17,104 nt of DNA from assembly GCA_016839945.1 (NCBI GenBank), contig JAEOTE010000058.1:1-17104 (forward strand), written 5' to 3'. This document shows positions 550 to 10,294 of the stretch, in pieces; the first letter of the stretch is position 1, and every line of letters begins with the position of its first letter. This stretch comes from Candidatus Heimdallarchaeota archaeon. Lineage in GTDB: Archaea; Asgardarchaeota; Heimdallarchaeia; Heimdallarchaeales; Heimdallarchaeaceae. The notes below the pieces were generated by a model. The model had not been told where the DNA came from. It was given only the letters and a program-made list of their open reading frames with translations, and did no database searches. A program made the position numbers and the translations under genes.

Positions 550-1605
550 ATGTTTGAAGTTGAGCAAAAAACAATTAATTGGTTATTAAAAAACAATAAT
601 CAACCTGTGAAATACTTAACTCAAATAAAGATATTAGATATCGATGAACAAGATAAGACTGTTTTATCTTCTAAGAATCAAATCATGAATTATCAACCAA
701 TTAAAGAAATTCTGGAAAACCAAATAGATAATAGATACTGGTTTGATGCAAAAAAAGATCAGAATTACAAGAAATATTTAGGAACTTTTTGGCAGTTAAT
801 CTTTCTCTATGAGTTAAATGCTTTAAGCAATATACAAATCGAAAATGCAATTGAGCATATTTTTTCTACTGGTCAAGCTCCAAATGGTGGATTTTCTGTA
901 ACTGGCACAAATAGTGGAGTAATAACTTGTCTTACATCAAATATTCTTCGAGCATTAATCCATTTTAACTATCTAAATGATGATAGAACTCAAGCAGCAT
1001 TGGAACATTTAATGTCTGATTATGTTGACAAAGAAGGATATATCCGTTGTAGAATGTATGGTCTGGCAAGTAGTTGTTATATGACTATACCAAAGATTCT
1101 CCACGCTTTAACTGCTATCCCCTCGAAAGAACGTACTCCACGCGTAAAGAAGGGAATTGATTTGTGTGTGAAACTACTTTTAGAAAATCAAATTTACAAG
1201 TATGTTCCAGAAAAGAATAGAGAATGGTTGAAATATGCAAATGAGAAAAAATTGAAAGGCAGTCAATTTTTTGAAGAGAGAAAAGAATTCCTTGAAAAAA
1301 ATCTTTCAATGAAGAAAGTAGAAAAAGCTGGTTGGATGAAATTTGGTTTTCCACTTAATTATAATTCAGATGTGCTAGATGTTATGAGATCTTTAGTTTC
1401 TGCTGATGTAAAATACTCCTCTGAGATGGATTCAGCTTTAGAATTAATAAAAAACAAGCATAGAAAGGGAAAGTGGATTAATGAGAAACAGTATAAATCA
1501 CCAATGTACACACAAATAGAACTTTATAAAGAAAAAAGTAAATGGATTACATTACATGCTTTAACAGTTCTGAAGCATTTTAAAGGATTAAAAATTATTT
1601 CATAA
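550..1605 (+). CDS. Uncharacterised alpha-helical barrel protein, terpene cyclase/prenyltransferase-like fold family
   Basis: 351-aa ORF with YKKYLGTFWQL, QAPNGGF, CLTSNILRAL, FGFPLNYNSDVLD and SKWITLHAL, matching a conserved family with prenyltransferase/squalene-cyclase-like repeats. No DXDD catalytic motif. Confidence 0.65.
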   Translation: MFEVEQKTINWLLKNNNQPVKYLTQIKILDIDEQDKTVLSSKNQIMNYQPIKEILENQIDNRYWFDAKKDQNYKKYLGTFWQLIFLYELNALSNIQIENAIEHIFSTGQAPNGGFSVTGTNSGVITCLTSNILRALIHFNYLNDDRTQAALEHLMSDYVDKEGYIRCRMYGLASSCYMTIPKILHALTAIPSKERTPRVKKGIDLCVKLLLENQIYKYVPEKNREWLKYANEKKLKGSQFFEERKEFLEKNLSMKKVEKAGWMKFGFPLNYNSDVLDVMRSLVSADVKYSSEMDSALELIKNKHRKGKWINEKQYKSPMYTQIELYKEKSKWITLHALTVLKHFKGLKIIS

Positions 1606-2004: not shown

Positions 2005-2139
2005 ATGTATAAGGATACAATATGCACTGAAAATCATCATTACATAGAATTAGTGTATAGATTCGGTTTTTTTACGAGAACAGCTGTTTGTATTCTAAAA
2101 TCACCCCTCTTGCTTAAACCAAAGTGGGTGATTAGATGA
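2005..2139 (+). CDS. Putative 44-aa upstream ORF overlapping the opine dehydrogenase start (ATGA)
   Basis: ATG at 2005 (in-frame GTG at 1996) is open for 44 codons: MYKDTICTENHHYIELVYRFGFFTRTAVCILKSPLLLKPKWVIR. Its TGA (2137-2139) overlaps the ATG at 2136. No clear SD and no recognisable homology. Confidence 0.35.
   Translation: MYKDTICTENHHYIELVYRFGFFTRTAVCILKSPLLLKPKWVIR
2099..2133 (+). promoter_or_regulatory. RNA hairpin sequestering the Shine-Dalgarno sequence of the opine dehydrogenase gene
   Basis: AATCACCC (2099-2106) is the exact reverse complement of GGGTGATT (2126-2133), and TTG/CAA extends the pairing inward. The 3' arm carries the archaeal SD-like GGGTGAT just before ATG 2136. 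Confidence 0.55.
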
Positions 2140-3260
2140 ATATTGCTGTGATAGGAGCTGGATGTGGAGGTCAAGCTATTGCAGGTTATCTAGCAGCTAA
2201 AGGAAATGAGGTTAATCTTTACAATAGATCCATAGATAGAATTCGTCTACTTCTGAAAAAAAAGGAAATTGAATTAAAAGGTGAAATACAAACAAAAGGA
2301 AAATTAAATCTAGTTACAACAAATATTTCAAAAGCTGTGAGAGGGACAGAATTGATTATGGTAGTTACTACAGCTAATGGACATTATGATATTGCGTCTG
2401 CATTAGCTCCACACCTTCAAGACGGACAAATAATTGTTCTAAACCCTGGAAGAACTTTTGGTAGTTTAGAATTTATGAACACACTTTTAGAAAAAGGTTT
2501 AGATGCAGATGTCACTATAGCAGAAGCTAATACTTTAATCTATGCTACAAGGATTATAAAACCTGGTTTAAGTGATGTTAAAGGAATTAAGAATTCTGTT
2601 TCTGTATCAGTTATTCCTAATCATCGCACTTCTTATGTAGTTTCTATATTGAATGAAAATTATCCACAATTTTATGGGACAAAGAGCTTTTTATCAACAA
2701 GTTTAGGAAATATTGGAGCAGTATTCCATCCTACTATAACTCTGTTAAACAGAGAGAAAATAATTAGGAAAGAAACATTTGATTTCTACAGAGACGGAGC
2801 TACAAGAGAAGTAGTTGATTATATGAAACAAGTTGACAATGAAAGACGAACTCTCGCTAGAAAGTTTGGAGTAAATGTTCAATCAATAAGAGAATGGTTG
2901 TGTGAAAGATATAGTCTTCCAGACTCAAATCTTTTTGATGCTTTACATAACAATCCTTTTTATGCAGGATTAGCAGCTCCTACAACTTTCGATATGAGAT
3001 ATTTAACAGAAGACATTCCTACAGGTCTTGTACCCTTTTCTGAGCTTGGTAAATCAGTAAGGATTGATACAAATTGTATTGATGATTTGATAAGTAAAGC
3101 TTCAATGGAACTGAAGGTTGACTTTAGAAGTCAAGGAAGAAATTTAAAAAGGTTAGGACTTGATGCTAGCACAATTTTTGAAGATTTAAGAAGAGTGTCT
3201 GAACTTGAAACACTAACAGAATATAAAGCTGCAGTTGGAGCTTCCGTTGGAGGAGATTAA
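2136..3260 (+). CDS. NAD(P)-dependent octopine/nopaline (opine) dehydrogenase family protein
   Basis: Rossmann motif IAVIGAGCGG followed by YNRS. Family motifs LNPGRTFG, AEANTLIYATR, GAVFHP (catalytic His), DNERR and RYLTEDIPTGLVP (catalytic Asp). Confidence 0.92.
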   Translation: MNIAVIGAGCGGQAIAGYLAAKGNEVNLYNRSIDRIRLLLKKKEIELKGEIQTKGKLNLVTTNISKAVRGTELIMVVTTANGHYDIASALAPHLQDGQIIVLNPGRTFGSLEFMNTLLEKGLDADVTIAEANTLIYATRIIKPGLSDVKGIKNSVSVSVIPNHRTSYVVSILNENYPQFYGTKSFLSTSLGNIGAVFHPTITLLNREKIIRKETFDFYRDGATREVVDYMKQVDNERRTLARKFGVNVQSIREWLCERYSLPDSNLFDALHNNPFYAGLAAPTTFDMRYLTEDIPTGLVPFSELGKSVRIDTNCIDDLISKASMELKVDFRSQGRNLKRLGLDASTIFEDLRRVSELETLTEYKAAVGASVGGD

Positions 3261-4784
3261 ATGAAAAAAATACTTGGAGCTTGTGTTGGAGATTGCGTTC
3301 ATATTGCAGGAATTCATAGATTTTTACAATTAGCAGAAAAACAAGGATATGAAACAATTTTCTTGGGACCTGCTGTAGAAACTGAACAACTCATTAATGC
3401 AATTAGAGAACATAATCCTGACATAGTAGGTTTGAGTTATAGATTGACTCCAAAAGCAGGAATTAAAATTCTAAAGCAATTGAAAAGAAGAATTATTGAA
3501 GAAGGATTAAATGAAAGAGAATTTATTCTAGGAGGTTTACCTGAACTTGTTCAAAGCGAAAAACAAGATGGTTTTTTTAGTGTTTATTTTAAAGGAGATG
3601 ATGCAGAACAAGCAATAGCTTATCTTAAAGGTGGGATTGTTGAAGCTAAAGATAGGATACCTACTCAAAATATCATAGATAGGATAGAATCTAAAAGTCC
3701 TTATCCTGTTTTAAGGCATCATTTTGGATTATCTTCATTAGAAGAGACAGTTGGGGGAATTAAGAAAATTGCTGAAAGTAGATGTCTGGATGTAATCTCT
3801 TTAGGTACTGATCAAAATACACAAGCACATTTTTTCCATCCTGAAAGAATGAGTATTGGTGAAGGTGCTGGAGGAGTTCCTGTAAGATCAAAAGAAGATT
3901 TTGAATTGCTATTTCAAGCTTCAAGAAGAGGAAATTATCCTTTGATGAGAACCTATGCTGGAACCGATGATCTGATCAAATTAGCTCAGCTTTATGTTAA
4001 CACAATAAATAACGCTTGGGCTGCAATACCTGTTTTTTGGTACAATCAAATGGATGGAAGAGGTCCAATGGATTTAGAAACTTCAATACAAGCTCATCTT
4101 GATGCAATAAAATGGCATGCGAAAAGAGATATTCCTGTTGAAATTCTTGAATCACATCAATGGTCAATGAGAGATGCTAAGGATGAGATAGCAATCGCTG
4201 CAGGATTTTTAGGAGCATACATATGTAAAGAATTGGGAGTTAGAACATTTATTTCACAATATATGTTTAATACACCTCCTCAAACAAATCAAAGAGATGA
4301 CTTAGCAAAAATGCTTGCTCAAAAAGAAATGATTGAATCGCTGCAGGATGATAATTTTGTAGTTTTTACTCAAACAAGAACAGGTTTGTTTAGTTATCCT
4401 ATCGATTTAGACATGGCAAAAGGGCAACTTGCTCAATCAGTTATGCTACAAATGCAACTCAAACCACATATTGTTCATGTTGTTAGTTATAGTGAAGCAA
4501 ATCATGCAGCTACACCAGGGAATGTTATTGAGAGTTGTAAAATCGCCAAACAAGTAATTACGAAATGTCTAGAAGGTCAACCTTCAATGATCTGGGATCC
4601 TTATGTTCTAGAGAGAAAACAAGAACTAATTGAAAAAGCAAATTTCATTATTAATGCAATAAAATCAAAAGGATCATTATTGGATGCTAATGTTCTATAT
4701 CAAAGTGTAGAAAGCGGATTATTGCATGCTCCTCAGCTTGATTCTTATAGAAGCAAAAAAATAGGAGAAATCTATTTGCATTAG
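3261..4784 (+). CDS. Cobalamin-binding protein: N-terminal B12 domain fused to a glutamate mutase E-like TIM barrel (putative AdoCbl-dependent mutase)
   Basis: The N-terminal ~120 aa has GDCVHIAG (His-ligand motif variant), FLGP, VGLS and ILGG. The remainder is co-linear with GlmE as recalled (DVISLGTDQNTQ, GGVP, AGTDDL, KELGV, SYPIDLDMAKG, VVSYSEANHAAT, CLEGQ, SVESGLLHAP). Strong SD GGAGGAG lies in the end of the upstream gene, with a zero-base gap. Confidence 0.8.
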   Translation: MKKILGACVGDCVHIAGIHRFLQLAEKQGYETIFLGPAVETEQLINAIREHNPDIVGLSYRLTPKAGIKILKQLKRRIIEEGLNEREFILGGLPELVQSEKQDGFFSVYFKGDDAEQAIAYLKGGIVEAKDRIPTQNIIDRIESKSPYPVLRHHFGLSSLEETVGGIKKIAESRCLDVISLGTDQNTQAHFFHPERMSIGEGAGGVPVRSKEDFELLFQASRRGNYPLMRTYAGTDDLIKLAQLYVNTINNAWAAIPVFWYNQMDGRGPMDLETSIQAHLDAIKWHAKRDIPVEILESHQWSMRDAKDEIAIAAGFLGAYICKELGVRTFISQYMFNTPPQTNQRDDLAKMLAQKEMIESLQDDNFVVFTQTRTGLFSYPIDLDMAKGQLAQSVMLQMQLKPHIVHVVSYSEANHAATPGNVIESCKIAKQVITKCLEGQPSMIWDPYVLERKQELIEKANFIINAIKSKGSLLDANVLYQSVESGLLHAPQLDSYRSKKIGEIYLH

Positions 4785-4785
4785 T

Positions 4786-5433
4786 CTACTTTTTTCTACG
4801 ATATGCACAATTTATCATATCACAAGTTTCACAATCTCTTACACCTAAATCCCTGTCTACTTCTGTTCCAATGTTGAATGCAAATGAAACTGATTTTACA
4901 GGTTTCATCATCATCGACACGCTTAATGTAACATCAATAAATTCTGTTGGTAATGAATTAAAAATTAATTGTTGCCCTTCCTCTAAAACCCATTGACAAT
5001 AACCTGGACTAAATCTGCAAGTCACTTCTTTGTCTTTTATTTGTTTCTTGATTTCTTCCAATATGATTTGATTAAACTGCTCTGCTGTTTCTTCTGCTGC
5101 ATGAGATGCTATAGCATCTAGAATGACGCCTTTAGCTAATTCCCCCTCATCCATAATGCTCGATATTTTATCCTCTAACTCCTTTCCAATTGTACATACA
5201 GCAATAACAGTTTTTTCTGATTTTCTAAAAAGAAATTGAGGTTGCAGCTCTTTACTATCAAATAAATCATAAACTCCCATAGGTTGTATGAGTTCCAATG
5301 CTTTCTCTTTCATATGATTGATATCATCAACCATCTTTTGTGTTGGTTTCTTGTTCATAGATTTCTTACTTTGTAAAAACCTGATAATTTCCTCGTTATC
5401 AAGTGTAATTGCAATATTTTCAAGGATCCTCAT
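4786..5433 (-). CDS. Stand-alone B12-dependent methionine synthase reactivation (SAM-binding activation) domain protein
   Basis: AVCTIG, LDAIAS, RFSPGY and MMKPVKSVS motifs, plus C-terminal CETCDMINC. SD AAGGAG upstream of the ATG. Confidence 0.9.
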   Translation of the reverse strand: MRILENIAITLDNEEIIRFLQSKKSMNKKPTQKMVDDINHMKEKALELIQPMGVYDLFDSKELQPQFLFRKSEKTVIAVCTIGKELEDKISSIMDEGELAKGVILDAIASHAAEETAEQFNQIILEEIKKQIKDKEVTCRFSPGYCQWVLEEGQQLIFNSLPTEFIDVTLSVSMMMKPVKSVSFAFNIGTEVDRDLGVRDCETCDMINCAYRRKK

Positions 5434-5437
5434 CAGG

Positions 5438-6322
5438 CTACTCCTTAATTTGTTGATTTATTTTTTCAATAAACTCTGGTCTTGTTCCACAACATCCACC
5501 AACAATTCTCGCCCCATTTTTTACCATTTGTTTAATATCCTTAGCAAAGCCTTCTGGTGTAGCTTGGTAGACTGTTTTTCCCTTGATTAATTCAGGTTTT
5601 CCAGCATTTGGTTTTGCTATTATAGGCAAACTAGTATGTTGTTTAATTTCAGATATCAAATCAACCATTTCTTCACTACTAATGGTACAATTAGCACCTA
5701 TTGCATCTACTCCTAAATCTTGAAGCGAGATGGTACATTCTTCTACTGAATTTCCCATAATAGTAAAATATCCTCTCTTTGTTTTTTGATAGGAAATAGA
5801 TGCGAATATTGGAACTTTGGAAACTTCTTTTACAGCTTTTACTGCAGCTTCAGCTTCTTTGAGATCAACCATTGTTTCAATAAAAAATAAGTCTACTCCT
5901 GCTTTAGTCAAAATCTCTGCTTGCTCAAGAAAGTTTTCTTCAAAACCTTCAATTGTTCCATCTCCCACTGGTGGAAGAAAGACTCCAGATGGACCTATAT
6001 CTCCAGCAATATAACATTTTTCTGGACAAACTTGTCTAGCTATTTCTACAGCTTTTCTGTTATAATCCTCAATACTGCTGCCATGTTTATGTGCCATTAA
6101 TTTTAATCCGGATCCACCAAACGTATTAGTAAGAACAACATCTGAGCCTGCATCAAAATATCCTTTGTGAACATTTTGAACCTTTTCAGAATTAGATACA
6201 TTCCACATTTCAGGAGGAGTTCCTGGTGGTAAACCTTGATCCATCAATAAAGAACCCATTGCTCCATCTAGAAGAACTACTCGTTCTTCAATCAAATCAA
6301 GAATGGTTCTCTTATTTTGCAG
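5438..6322 (-). CDS. Homocysteine S-methyltransferase domain protein (Hcy-binding module of a split MetH)
   Basis: LLDGAMG, AGSDVVLTNTFG, AGDIGPSG, IETM and Zn ligands GANC and GGCCGT. Start extended from the track's TTG (6295) to an in-frame CTG at 6322, which sits 6 nt after SD AAGGAGGT. Confidence 0.92.
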   Translation of the reverse strand: MQNKRTILDLIEERVVLLDGAMGSLLMDQGLPPGTPPEMWNVSNSEKVQNVHKGYFDAGSDVVLTNTFGGSGLKLMAHKHGSSIEDYNRKAVEIARQVCPEKCYIAGDIGPSGVFLPPVGDGTIEGFEENFLEQAEILTKAGVDLFFIETMVDLKEAEAAVKAVKEVSKVPIFASISYQKTKRGYFTIMGNSVEECTISLQDLGVDAIGANCTISSEEMVDLISEIKQHTSLPIIAKPNAGKPELIKGKTVYQATPEGFAKDIKQMVKNGARIVGGCCGTRPEFIEKINQQIKE

Positions 6323-6334
6323 AAAGAAACCTCC

Positions 6335-6970
6335 TTACAATCCTAATAGATTTCTTGCTAATTTAACAGCACTAATGGCATTTTCTGCAGTTCCATCAGC
6401 TCCAATCTCCTCAGTCCATTTCTTTGAAACAGGAGCACCACCAATTAGAACTTTAAACTTATCACGGATGTTCTTTTCTTCTAGAGTATCTATTAACCTC
6501 TTTTGACCAACCATTGTTGTAGTAAGAAGTGCAGAGATACAAATAATGTCTGCATTGACTTCTAAAGCTTTATCGATAAAAGTGGATATAGGAACATCTG
6601 CACCAAGATCATGAACATCAAATCCTTCAGCTGAAAGCATTGAAGCTACGAGAGTTTTACCAATATCATGGATATCTCCTTCAATGGTTCCTATTACAAT
6701 TCTACCTAGTGATCTGTCTTCCTTACCTTCAGAAATAATGGGATCGAAAATCGTCATGGCAGCTTTCATAGCTTCAGCACTTCTCATAAGTTCTGGCAAG
6801 AAGAATTCTCCTTCTTCGAAAAGATCTCCTGCTTCTCTGATAGCTAAAGAAAAAGCATCTATTGCAGCATTGATGTCAAGATTATCGGTAACAGCTTTTT
6901 GAGCAAGATTTTTAGATAAATCTATGTCTCCTGCTAAAATTGCGTCTTTACATTTTTCTGGGAAACTCAT
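6335..6970 (-). CDS. Methyltransferase cognate corrinoid protein (MttC/MtbC-like; cap + B12-binding domains)
   Basis: GEFFLPELM cap motif, canonical EGDIHDIGK (DxHxxG), DLGADVP, SALLTTTM, IGGAP and IGADG. Confidence 0.95.
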   Translation of the reverse strand: MSFPEKCKDAILAGDIDLSKNLAQKAVTDNLDINAAIDAFSLAIREAGDLFEEGEFFLPELMRSAEAMKAAMTIFDPIISEGKEDRSLGRIVIGTIEGDIHDIGKTLVASMLSAEGFDVHDLGADVPISTFIDKALEVNADIICISALLTTTMVGQKRLIDTLEEKNIRDKFKVLIGGAPVSKKWTEEIGADGTAENAISAVKLARNLLGL

Positions 6971-7744: not shown

Positions 7745-8710
7745 TCAATATTCTAGCAACTCAAGAATCCTCTTCTTAGCTTCAAGATATTTCTCTACTT
7801 GGTTAGAATTACTAAAGAAACCTGCAGCTGTCATACCTATGAATATCTTGTAGCACAATAACCTATAATCGTAATTTTCAAAATCTATTTTTTTATCATC
7901 TTCAAACATTTTCTTGTAGAGCTTAGCATAATGATTTTCTTCTCTTATTTGCCAGAAATCTAACCAAGCAATATCATATGCAAAATCACCAAATAATGAA
8001 TGTTCCCAATCAAAGACAGCTGATATGTCTCCATTAATATCTACCAGAACATTATCATAACCATAATCACCATGAACCAAATATCGGTGTTTTGAACAAA
8101 ATTGAACTAGCTCTTGGATTCTTTTTGATCCTTTAATGTAAAGATCTTTTTCAAAAATTCCAGTAGAAAATCTCTTGTTTGTGTAGATTCTTAATCCTTC
8201 TATAACATCTAAAATATGTTCACTCATAGAATCGAGTTTTGCTTCTTGCAAGTTTGACCAATTTCCATACCCTCTTGTTTTTGAAATTTCAATGGAATGA
8301 ATATTGTGTAGCATTCGAGCTAAATTATCATCCGCTTTCTCACTTCTTTCTTGAGGAAAAAGATGAGAATTTACTCCAGTAGCTTTTTCAACAATACAGT
8401 AAAGTATCCTCCTTTTCTTTTCAAAACCAAAAATTCCTTTTTCAACAATATTTGGAATTGGAATTGTATTATCTCTTGATTTTACATACTCATATGCAAG
8501 AAGCTCTTTTTGGAAAGGATTCTTTCCTGTAGTACTTGCCTTAGTTTTCCTAATTTTAATTACATAACTTCCTTTCTCATCATCAAAGGAAAAAACTTGA
8601 GACAACTCTCCTCCTTTCAAGAATTCTAGATTCTTTATTTCAGAACTGAAATTTTCCGTGAGGAATTGTCTAACATCTCCAATCTCAATTGATGTTTTTG
8701 CCTTTGACAT
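7745..8710 (-). CDS. Aminoglycoside phosphotransferase family kinase, APH(4)/hygromycin B kinase-like
   Basis: Brenner motif LVHGDYGYDNVL, metal-binding VFDWE..FGD..YDIA, and N-terminal GGELSQVFSF..YVIKI. Start set at ATG 8710 (MSKAK, GGAG upstream) rather than the track's 8785. Confidence 0.85.
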   Translation of the reverse strand: MSKAKTSIEIGDVRQFLTENFSSEIKNLEFLKGGELSQVFSFDDEKGSYVIKIRKTKASTTGKNPFQKELLAYEYVKSRDNTIPIPNIVEKGIFGFEKKRRILYCIVEKATGVNSHLFPQERSEKADDNLARMLHNIHSIEISKTRGYGNWSNLQEAKLDSMSEHILDVIEGLRIYTNKRFSTGIFEKDLYIKGSKRIQELVQFCSKHRYLVHGDYGYDNVLVDINGDISAVFDWEHSLFGDFAYDIAWLDFWQIREENHYAKLYKKMFEDDKKIDFENYDYRLLCYKIFIGMTAAGFFSNSNQVEKYLEAKKRILELLEY

Positions 8711-8797
8711 TAAAGATTCAACTCCATTAAGAGATTTAATTCTTTTGTTGAATATTTTACGGAATAAATATAAGTCTAATATCAATTATGTTATTTT

Positions 8798-10294
8798 GTG
8801 ATTATAATGAACAATGAAAAGAGAAAAATCCTTTCAATTAGCACTCTTCTTTTAATCTTCTGCATCTTATACACTGTTCCTGAAATCAATGTTTCTGGAG
8901 ATATTCTTCTCGATTCTTGGACTTGGGCGGCAGGTAGTAATTTAGATGATCAATTCCCAACATATGGAACAAAAGGAGAAGAAGATCCAAGCAATGATCC
9001 TGGAGGAAGACAAGGATGTGCTACTTGGATAGATGATGAAGGAAATTACTGGGTGTTTGGTGGTCTTGGTTATGATAGTGGGAACGATTTTGGGCTTCTA
9101 AACGATTTATGGAGATACAATATAACAAGTCATCAATGGGCATGGATAACTGGCTCAAATTTAATTAATCAACCTAGTATTTATGGTGCCAAAGGCGTTT
9201 TCCATGAAAATAATCAACCAGTTTGTAGATATGAATGTACATCATTCAAGGATAATGATGGTCATTTTTGGCTTTTTGGTGGATCTACAACAGGAGGTGC
9301 TTATAGAGGAGATTTGTGGTGCTATAACACAACATTAAATGCTTGGGCTTGGATTGCAGGAAGCGACACAGATGACGATCCTGGAAGTTATGGAATATAC
9401 AGAATTTTTGATGTGAATAACTTACCTCCAGCTAGAACAATATGTTGTTCATGGGTAGATAGTAATAATCTATTCTATATCTTTGGAGGTCAAGCTCCTG
9501 GTTCAGCTTATTTCAACGATTTATGGTGCTATAACTCGTCACTTCTGCATTGGGCATGGATATCAGGTAATAATGCAACAAATGAGAATGGTGTTTATGG
9601 ACTTAAAGGAATAGAAGATACTTCAAATCATCCTGGAGCAAGAAACATATTCACATCTTGGAAATCTACTGATGACTATTTGTGGTTGTTTGGAGGATGG
9701 GGTAGAAGCTGGACTGGAGCAACTGGAAGATTGAACGATTTATGGAGATACAATAAAACAACAGATATGTGGGCTTGGATGTCCGGAAGTAATGCTACAA
9801 ACGATTTAGGAAACTGGGGTACTAAGGGTGTTCCTCATGATCTTAATCAACCAAGAGCGAGATATCTAGCTGCATCTTGTGTTGATAGCAACGGTAATTT
9901 TCTACTATATGGAGGTAATTCTCCAGATACTTCTATGTTAAACGATCTTTGGAGATATGATTTGAGTTTAGGTCAATGGGTTTGGATATCAGGGAACAGT
10001 TCAACAAGCGTTATAGGACTATATGGAACTAAAGGAGTAGCCAACACAAGTACTTATCCTGGGTCTAGACAAAGAGCCTCTATGAATTGTGATGATAGTG
10101 GTTACATTTGGGTATTCGGAGGATATGGTGTTAGTAGCATAGGAGATTTAGGTTTACTAAGTGATTTGTGGATGTACACTCCTGCAGATTTAGTTATTAT
10201 TAATGAATACAATAACGTACAAAACATACTTCTATTCTTTTTGGGAACCTTAACAGTTAGTCTAGTATTTACAAGAAAGAGAAGGAAAAAATAA
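8798..10294 (+). CDS. Secreted, membrane-anchored Kelch-type six-bladed beta-propeller protein
   Basis: Signal-like N-terminus (KRKILSISTLLLIFCILY). Six ~70-aa repeats (P..R..W.D..G.W.FGG..NDLW.Y..W.W..G). C-terminal INEY, then a hydrophobic helix and RKRRKK. ATG 8807 is an alternative start. Confidence 0.88.
   Translation: MIIMNNEKRKILSISTLLLIFCILYTVPEINVSGDILLDSWTWAAGSNLDDQFPTYGTKGEEDPSNDPGGRQGCATWIDDEGNYWVFGGLGYDSGNDFGLLNDLWRYNITSHQWAWITGSNLINQPSIYGAKGVFHENNQPVCRYECTSFKDNDGHFWLFGGSTTGGAYRGDLWCYNTTLNAWAWIAGSDTDDDPGSYGIYRIFDVNNLPPARTICCSWVDSNNLFYIFGGQAPGSAYFNDLWCYNSSLLHWAWISGNNATNENGVYGLKGIEDTSNHPGARNIFTSWKSTDDYLWLFGGWGRSWTGATGRLNDLWRYNKTTDMWAWMSGSNATNDLGNWGTKGVPHDLNQPRARYLAASCVDSNGNFLLYGGNSPDTSMLNDLWRYDLSLGQWVWISGNSSTSVIGLYGTKGVANTSTYPGSRQRASMNCDDSGYIWVFGGYGVSSIGDLGLLSDLWMYTPADLVIINEYNNVQNILLFFLGTLTVSLVFTRKRRKK

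Follow-up and report, generated by a model that had tools for sequence, protein, structure and literature searches.

An opine dehydrogenase paired with a glutamate mutase-like B12 protein in a Heimdallarchaeon: a candidate route to an isomerised opine

A 17.1-kb contig of Candidatus Heimdallarchaeota archaeon, which we analysed in full (17,104 nt, hereafter the window; genome of 3.0 Mb, 88% complete), carries two abutting genes, one for an opine dehydrogenase (ODH) and one for a protein in which a B12-binding domain precedes a TIM barrel. Sequence comparison and a structural model indicate that the B12 protein, referred to below as the mutase, is very probably an adenosyl-B12 radical enzyme. 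From its sequence, it appears to resemble glutamate mutase E (GlmE) in mode of action without belonging to the GlmE family. The ODH bears the signature of enzymes acting on acidic amino acids. The reading that we favour, with slightly less than even confidence, is that the ODH makes N-(1-carboxyethyl)-Asp or -Glu and that the mutase isomerises it, the whole serving the synthesis of a solute. If true, the radical rearrangement would be new, and the product would probably be a new compatible solute. To our knowledge, the known families of adenosyl-B12 enzymes number only about a dozen, and members of the present one are often mislabelled as methionine synthase.

A preliminary description of the window, made from the sequence alone, had presented the combination of these two families as undescribed. 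This has to be corrected, as the pairing itself has been in print since 2009. Zhang et al. predicted a B12 family always adjoining PF02317 (octopine/nopaline dehydrogenase), with Ddl-like and asparagine synthase neighbours (PMC2667541), and Mavromatis et al. described the operon Hore_09740/09750 in H. orenii (PMC2626281). The window mutase is 52% identical to the H. orenii protein, which also lies beside an ODH, and it shares with the 2009 family the N-terminal B12 domain, the PF02317 pairing and, in some genomes, Ddl-like or AsnB-like genes. These two papers deal with 11 bacteria or a few genera, liken the protein to MetH and give no function; the kinship with glutamate mutase and its fold, the acid-type ODH, the riboswitch and the archaeal copies go beyond their passages on it. 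New here are the residue-level mapping, a control set of unpaired ODHs and a conserved leader made of an upstream open reading frame (ORF) and a hairpin. No biochemical study of the pair was found in the openly accessible literature.

The features of the pair, all on the + strand, are as follows.

2136–3260, +, ODH of 374 aa, assigned to the CENDH family, acidic-amino-acid type and probably NADPH-using (PF02317, 1BG6, signature residues)
3249–3263, +, ODH/mutase junction, with a Shine-Dalgarno motif within the end of the ODH gene, then stop and start (sequence)
3261–4784, +, B12 mutase ORF of 507 aa (ORF call)
3261–3638, +, predicted cobalamin-binding Rossmann domain, residues 1–126, His-on (PF02310; alignments to GlmS and OraE)
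3657–4748, +, predicted GlmE-like TIM barrel, residues 133–496 (AlphaFold, Foldseek, VIA-align, profile mapping)

Fold and active site of the B12 protein

The AlphaFold model of the mutase (pLDDT 91.4, pTM 0.89) consisted of a Rossmann domain and a TIM barrel. Foldseek ranked glutamate mutase E (1CB7_B) first, followed by lysine/ornithine aminomutases and the methylmalonyl-CoA mutase (MCM) family. VIA-align had the same top match, with Z 34.4 and an rmsd of 3.0 Å over 345 residues at 15% identity, as compared with Z 30.6 for lysine aminomutase, 29.4 for ornithine aminomutase, 19–22 for MCM-type barrels and at most 15.4 for pterin/methyltransferase barrels. The earlier proposal of a single-chain mutase rather than a methyltransferase was thus supported, GlmE coming first when GlmE, MCM and aminomutase barrels were compared and no methyltransferase fold matching better. 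For the profile comparison, the GlmE alignment was built with its first row numbered as 1CB7_B. A shallow comparison reached only 52% probability, and deeper alignments raised it to 96.6% (E 6e-10), co-linear across 361 columns, in agreement with the end-to-end co-linearity claimed before for a domain of ~380 aa. Seven of the eight motif pairs originally cited for that claim were in register. The exception is the first one, EQAIAYLK with QEAVDYLK: it covers residues 117–124, which belong to the final helix of the B12 domain and are outside the structurally aligned residues 133–496, and is probably a chance match.

A sequence search of the PDB matched the B12 domain only, and the barrel was found by fold and profile comparison. 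Pfam recognised the B12-binding domain (PF02310) at residues 3–119 (E 4.5e-13) and gave a weak MutE match (PF06368; E 5e-5, 22.3 bits, below the 26.6 cut-off); the same scan of the mutase returned no B12-binding_2 (four-helix cap) domain. At its C-terminus, the window mutase is ~35 residues shorter than bacterial members. Since all close relatives are equally short, it is not a broken copy. The host genome encodes a CobA adenosyltransferase and a class II ribonucleotide reductase, and a search of its 88% complete sequence found no PduO, MutL or methylmalonyl-CoA mutase. Among 127 mutase loci sampled for a survey of neighbourhoods, GlmL/MutL adjoined the pair in 6, and it did so in one further Asgard locus.

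We then compared residues, counting conservation over 325 family sequences. Of the adenosyl-site residues of GlmE, Gly68, Gly124 and Glu330 are retained as G156, G205 and E412, conserved at 99–100% (E412 at 99%), and two others, Asn123 and Lys326, are replaced, the latter by Val. Asp96 of GlmE is retained as D184. Glu330 and its equivalents promote Co–C homolysis (PMC4413051, PMC3958899). In the B12 domain, the cobalt ligand H14 and G17 are kept in 99% of sequences, and the canonical Asp of the DxH motif is Cys (C12) in 94% and Asp in 6%. The substrate side is different. GlmE Arg66, Arg100 and Arg149 are replaced by H154, Q188 and Y232; near position 254, a small residue stands in place of Glu171, and Tyr181 has given way to a residue other than Tyr. 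Tyr177 is replaced as well. As Arg66, Arg100, Arg149, Glu171 and Tyr181 are what we take to be the glutamate-binding residues, their loss makes a canonical glutamate mutase a most improbable assignment, and several Bacillota genomes carry both this family and a true GlmE. On strands 1 and 3, invariant arginines stand two positions ahead of the replaced ones, namely, R152 (at GlmE Gln64) and R230 (at Gln147), together with R267 and R373. The result is a rebuilt, arginine-rich barrel pocket lined by R152, H154, Q185, Q188, R230, Y232, R267, E294, R373 and H406, in which a shift of the arginines two residues deeper would fit a longer substrate.

With the GlmS/GlmE system (EC 5.4.99.1; 1CB7, 1CCW, 1I9C; PF06368), the mutase therefore shares a His-on B12 domain, a co-linear barrel, the equivalents of G68, D96, G124 and E330 and an occasional GlmL neighbour. 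It differs in being one chain with the B12 domain first, in its 15% identity, in the replacement of R66, R100, R149, E171, Y177, Y181 and K326, in the Cys of the DxH motif and in its coexistence with true GlmE. Ornithine 4,5- and lysine 5,6-aminomutases (3KOW, 1XRS, 8T0V) provide the next-best barrels (Z 29–31) and have the conserved homolysis Glu. In contrast to them, the mutase lacks the pyridoxal phosphate (PLP) lysine (OraE Lys629, KamE Lys144): the loop is four residues shorter, and A25 is Ala in 95% of sequences.

Some divergent members of the family have unusual sizes, with open frames of 1,230–1,245 aa (G128:C5, G163:C59, G087:C156) or of 620–745 aa with an insertion between the B12 domain and the barrel. 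Loci L233–L247 encode divergent GlmE-like proteins, some changed at substrate positions, and possibly represent more mutase subfamilies.

The gene pair and the signature of its dehydrogenase

The ODH and mutase ORFs abut with zero gap (TAA at 3258–3260, ATG at 3261), and a GGAGGAG motif at 3249–3255 stands 5 nt upstream of the mutase ATG. A zero gap or near-overlap was seen again in relatives, so that the tight junction pointed out in the preliminary description is not peculiar to the window. Translation of the mutase is probably coupled to that of the ODH. The mutase family is large, comprising at least 6,661 clusters at 90% identity, and an ODH was present in the same locus in 120 of the 127 loci (64 with ODH first and 50 with the mutase first within 300 nt, 3 farther and 3 on opposite strands). 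The remaining seven were four loci cut short and three from Coprothermobacterota showing no ODH within the flanks covered (L025, L026, L041). Both gene orders occur in bacteria. A sample of 221 Asgard genomes, in which related genomes are not independent, contained the mutase in 85 (38%), the ODH in 88 and both in 82, versus 34 expected under independence, and the ODH adjoined the mutase in 79 of the 85 carriers. Within a single Bacillota phylum, ~50 of 251 genomes, about a fifth, had the mutase. The functional linkage assumed at the outset thus gained support from the survey.

In a quick tree, Asgard mutases fell into at least four separate groups amid bacterial sequences. The identity matrices of ODH and mutase correlated (r 0.67 among pairs <70% identity), and the two proteins had identical nearest outside neighbours, as expected of a cassette moving as a unit. 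One locus (L224; G359:C23) held two complete pairs 10 kb apart with an AsnB-like gene in between.

The ODH matched Pfam Octopine_DH (PF02317) with E 6.7e-40 and 137 bits (cut-off 30) and Arthrobacter CENDH (1BG6) with E 1e-67. The Rossmann GxGxxG, the H198/D293 His-Asp dyad, R288 and W254 are all kept. R106 and G194 occupy ArODH positions 111 and 198, and the cofactor site N30-R31-S32 is an NADPH-type motif. Mutagenesis has established that Arg111 and Gly198 switch ODHs to aspartate/glutamate, with pyruvate and mostly NADPH, and acid-type enzymes prefer Asp and pyruvate and hardly accept 2-oxoglutarate (PMC10787698). This Arg/Gly signature was found in all 132 paired ODHs and in 152/152 of an extended set. 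Of the 15 unpaired Asgard ODHs, in contrast, 14 lack it and carry Asn198 instead. The prediction from these residues that the ODH joins pyruvate to L-Asp or L-Glu, yielding N-(1-carboxyethyl)-L-Asp or -L-Glu, is well supported. Such a product would be a tricarboxylate and would suit the arginine-rich barrel of the mutase. The signature narrows the substrate to two opines, which a published enzyme has made at preparative scale.

The metagenomic acid-type ODHs (mODHs; Telek et al. 2024, PMC10787698) share with the window protein the fold, the His-Asp dyad, Arg111/Gly198 and the NADPH-type motif, and were reported without gene context or physiological role. Arthrobacter CENDH (1BG6) shares the fold and the dyad but favours apolar amino acids and NADH. 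Staphylopine and pseudopaline synthases likewise form an opine by reductive condensation, but the window ODH has no match to their Pfam family. No nicotianamine synthase or metal import/export gene appeared among the annotated recurrent neighbour clusters, some singleton genes being left unannotated. A metallophore, one of the products suggested at first, found no support; what the neighbourhoods support instead, in bacteria, is osmotic control.

A proposed pathway and its alternatives

Ten of the 127 loci have a riboswitch for cyclic di-AMP (c-di-AMP) upstream of the operon, as do 5 of another 20 loci from Bacillota. Neighbours with a TrkA-C domain recur, namely, a Na+/H+ antiporter, a CLC channel and a GntR-TrkA-C regulator. 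So do three unrelated amide-forming modules: an AsnB-like protein, a Ddl-like ATP-grasp ligase, and a RimK-like ATP-grasp ligase with a C26 glutaminase. The nearest sister groups of the window clade have a four-gene arrangement of ODH, mutase, ATP-grasp and C26, in which mutase and ATP-grasp are fused once. Riboswitches, TrkA-C neighbours and amide modules point to a solute under osmotic control, which for the window archaeon is an extrapolation. Its genome shows the two-gene core only; when it was searched for the ATP-grasp and AsnB partners, nothing closely similar was found, only a distant Asn_synthase-domain gene elsewhere.

The fusion (L047:1174-3765) is an 863-aa mutase/RimK-like ATP-grasp protein followed by a C26 peptidase, and the unfused four-gene form is seen in L107, L283, L284 and L285. 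We considered whether the AsnB partner, when Cys-less, could be a beta-lactam synthetase, and rejected this: asparagine synthetase matched with E 4e-53 versus 1e-17 for beta-lactam synthetase, and about half of the partners keep the Cys.

In the pathway we propose, a route to a small solute that is anionic, the tricarboxylic opine would first be formed by the ODH from pyruvate and L-aspartate or L-glutamate, with NADPH as reductant. The single-chain mutase would bind adenosylcobalamin His-on, with E412 aiding Co–C cleavage, and isomerise the opine by a radical 1,2-shift. The enzyme class is well supported by the fold and residues described above, and the opine, in whichever direction, is probably what the mutase acts on. 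The isomer, no longer reversible by the ODH, might then accumulate as an osmolyte or K+ counter-ion, a step suggested by the bacterial context. Many genomes would add an amide ligase; the window genome apparently has none.

Methylmalonyl-CoA mutase, glutamate mutase and methyleneglutarate mutase interconvert X-CH(CH3)-COOH and X-CH2CH2-COOH, with the linear form favoured, so that a branched-to-linear shift would be downhill. The chemistry that we place first, doubtful as it is in itself, is such a shift on the pyruvate arm, from X-CH(CH3)-COOH to X-CH2-CH2-COOH with the amino nitrogen as X; the product would be N-(2-carboxyethyl)-Asp/Glu. In this scheme, the deeper arginines would be within reach of the carboxylates of Asp or Glu, and the amine could be held during its migration by H154, Y232 or E294. 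Placed just below it is a glutamate mutase-like shift turning the glutamate arm into a 3-methylaspartate arm. This chemistry has precedent, and the loss of Glu171 would leave room for the N-substituent, but the shift would run uphill, and one would expect the arginine claw to have been retained. The boldest form of the proposal is a speculation to which we give a low probability: a new reaction class, in which a PLP-free His-on adenosylcobalamin mutase moves an amino-acid nitrogen on the pyruvate arm, and N-(2-carboxyethyl)-Asp/Glu or its amide serves many anaerobic bacteria and Asgard archaea as an osmolyte that has gone unrecognised. An identity as the uncloned B12 leucine 2,3-aminomutase, or as an alanine-to-beta-alanine route, was dropped, the ODH being of the acidic type.

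Several alternatives were weighed. The pair may be catabolic: an iminodicarboxylate from the environment, such as a branched opine or N-(2-carboxyethyl)-Asp/Glu, would be turned by the mutase into a form that the ODH oxidises to pyruvate and Asp/Glu. Carriers are mostly anaerobic heterotrophs, the two-gene core often stands without companions, and the reversibility of ODHs is established. However, no amino-acid or opine uptake system recurs among the shared neighbours, the cofactor motif is of the NADPH type, and ATP-consuming amide ligases and c-di-AMP control fit synthesis; we regard catabolism as unlikely, albeit the first of the alternatives. Somewhat less likely is that the mutase comes first. 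It would rearrange a precursor in free form, either a 2-oxo acid or an analogue of an acidic amino acid, and the ODH would then trap the product by reductive condensation. NADPH reduction would pull an uphill branching, and the occurrence of both gene orders is compatible with it. Against this scheme, the small-substrate contacts of GlmE are all replaced and the pocket has more invariant arginines, true GlmE coexists with the family in several genomes, and acid-type ODHs hardly accept 2-oxoglutarate (PMC10787698).

Another scheme would have pyruvate replace PLP: Glu is bound as an opine or imine, its nitrogen is shifted from C2 to C3, after which beta-glutamate is freed by the ODH and converted to beta-glutamine by the amide ligases. 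Beta-glutamate and beta-glutamine are known osmolytes, and the scheme fits c-di-AMP control and amide ligases. But the ODH would need to accept a beta-amino acid, acid-type ODHs use Asp better, and known 2,3-aminomutases are radical-SAM/PLP enzymes, which leaves it a slim chance. Recurrent ATP-grasp ligases would also suit a product that is not a free solute but is built into a polymer or peptide of the cell surface. This is slimmer still, as glycosyltransferase-like neighbours are rare in the 127 loci and absent from the window, and the window genome has no ATP-grasp partner. Finally, the "methionine synthase" labels imply a methylcobalamin methyltransferase cooperating with the adjacent genes for a corrinoid protein, a homocysteine methyltransferase and MetH activation (4786–6970). 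The B12 domain does score slightly higher with corrinoid proteins by sequence, and such genes are also near the pair in one distant Asgard locus (L228). Nevertheless, the barrel is of the mutase type (Z 34 versus ≤15), the adenosyl-site Glu is retained and there is no cap domain, and the cluster is convergent, on the opposite strand and limited to 10 close relatives among the 127 loci. We consider this reading highly improbable, the least likely of the alternatives, and rejected it.

Returning to synthesis of an isomerised opine, a number of points weigh against it. The residue map between mutase and GlmE is a profile alignment at 17% identity rather than a superposition of coordinates, and it is uncertain near GlmE 171–181 and 291. 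The loss of Glu171 fits an N-substituted glutamate equally well, and we know of no precedent among His-on mutases for migration of a secondary amine without PLP. As ODHs are reversible, gene content does not fix the direction. For every family member, the activity, substrate and product proposed here rest on sequence and model. The osmotic evidence is wholly bacterial, and the riboswitch is present in a minority of loci only. An Rfam scan of the window gave no match, hence no riboswitch, and a search of the 88% complete genome found no diadenylate cyclase.

Leader of the operon and neighbouring genes

Two further features precede the ODH gene.

2005–2139, +, leader ORF of 44 codons, whose TGA overlaps the ODH start (ATGA) and which spans the hairpin
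2099–2133, +, predicted hairpin (arms 2099–2106 and 2126–2133) burying the GGTGA ribosome-binding site of the ODH gene (shuffle test, conservation)

In all 18 Heimdallarchaeia loci examined, the leader frame was open for 37–74 codons and ended in the same ATGA overlap. Its indels are multiples of 3 and there is no codon-position bias (25/27/21 variable states), so that translation rather than the peptide seems to be conserved. The hairpin had a z of -2.95, with 2 of 200 shuffles equally stable, and its 6-bp core was kept in 12–14 of 14 loci with C-to-U wobble changes only and no compensatory change. Of 1345 similar sites in the genome, 32 have a comparable anti-Shine-Dalgarno element in front of them. 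These comparisons suggest that translation of the leader probably opens the hairpin and so gates ODH expression in this archaeal family, making leader and hairpin a possible archaeal translational control element. Scans of the window for sigma-70 promoters and terminators gave matches at chance level.

Downstream of the pair, at 4786–6970 (−), lie genes for a corrinoid protein (best model MtgC, below cut-off), a homocysteine methyltransferase and a stand-alone MetH activation domain. Given its convergent orientation and narrow distribution, the position of this cluster next to the pair looks incidental. In close relatives (L003–L009; G000 contig C185), an MttB-family gene lies on the same strand beyond the ODH–mutase pair, so that the pair seems inserted into a methyltransferase operon leading from methylamine/betaine to methionine.

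Elsewhere in the window, 550–1605 (+) encodes a 351-aa protein that has no Pfam or NCBIfam match; L001 and L002 are the only loci in which it accompanies the pair, and on visual inspection it resembles a helical barrel of the prenyltransferase/squalene-cyclase kind. An APH/fructosamine-kinase-like phosphotransferase (PF01636) is encoded at 7745–8785 (−). The gene at 8798–10294 (+), whose GC content is above that of its surroundings, encodes a Kelch beta-propeller that has a signal-like segment at its N-terminus and a membrane segment at its C-terminus, and is seen only in the two closest relatives. In three Firmicutes loci (L043, L044, L045), a Crp/Fnr regulator follows the mutase, in L045 with a hybrid-cluster protein gene next to it, which may be unrelated to the pair.

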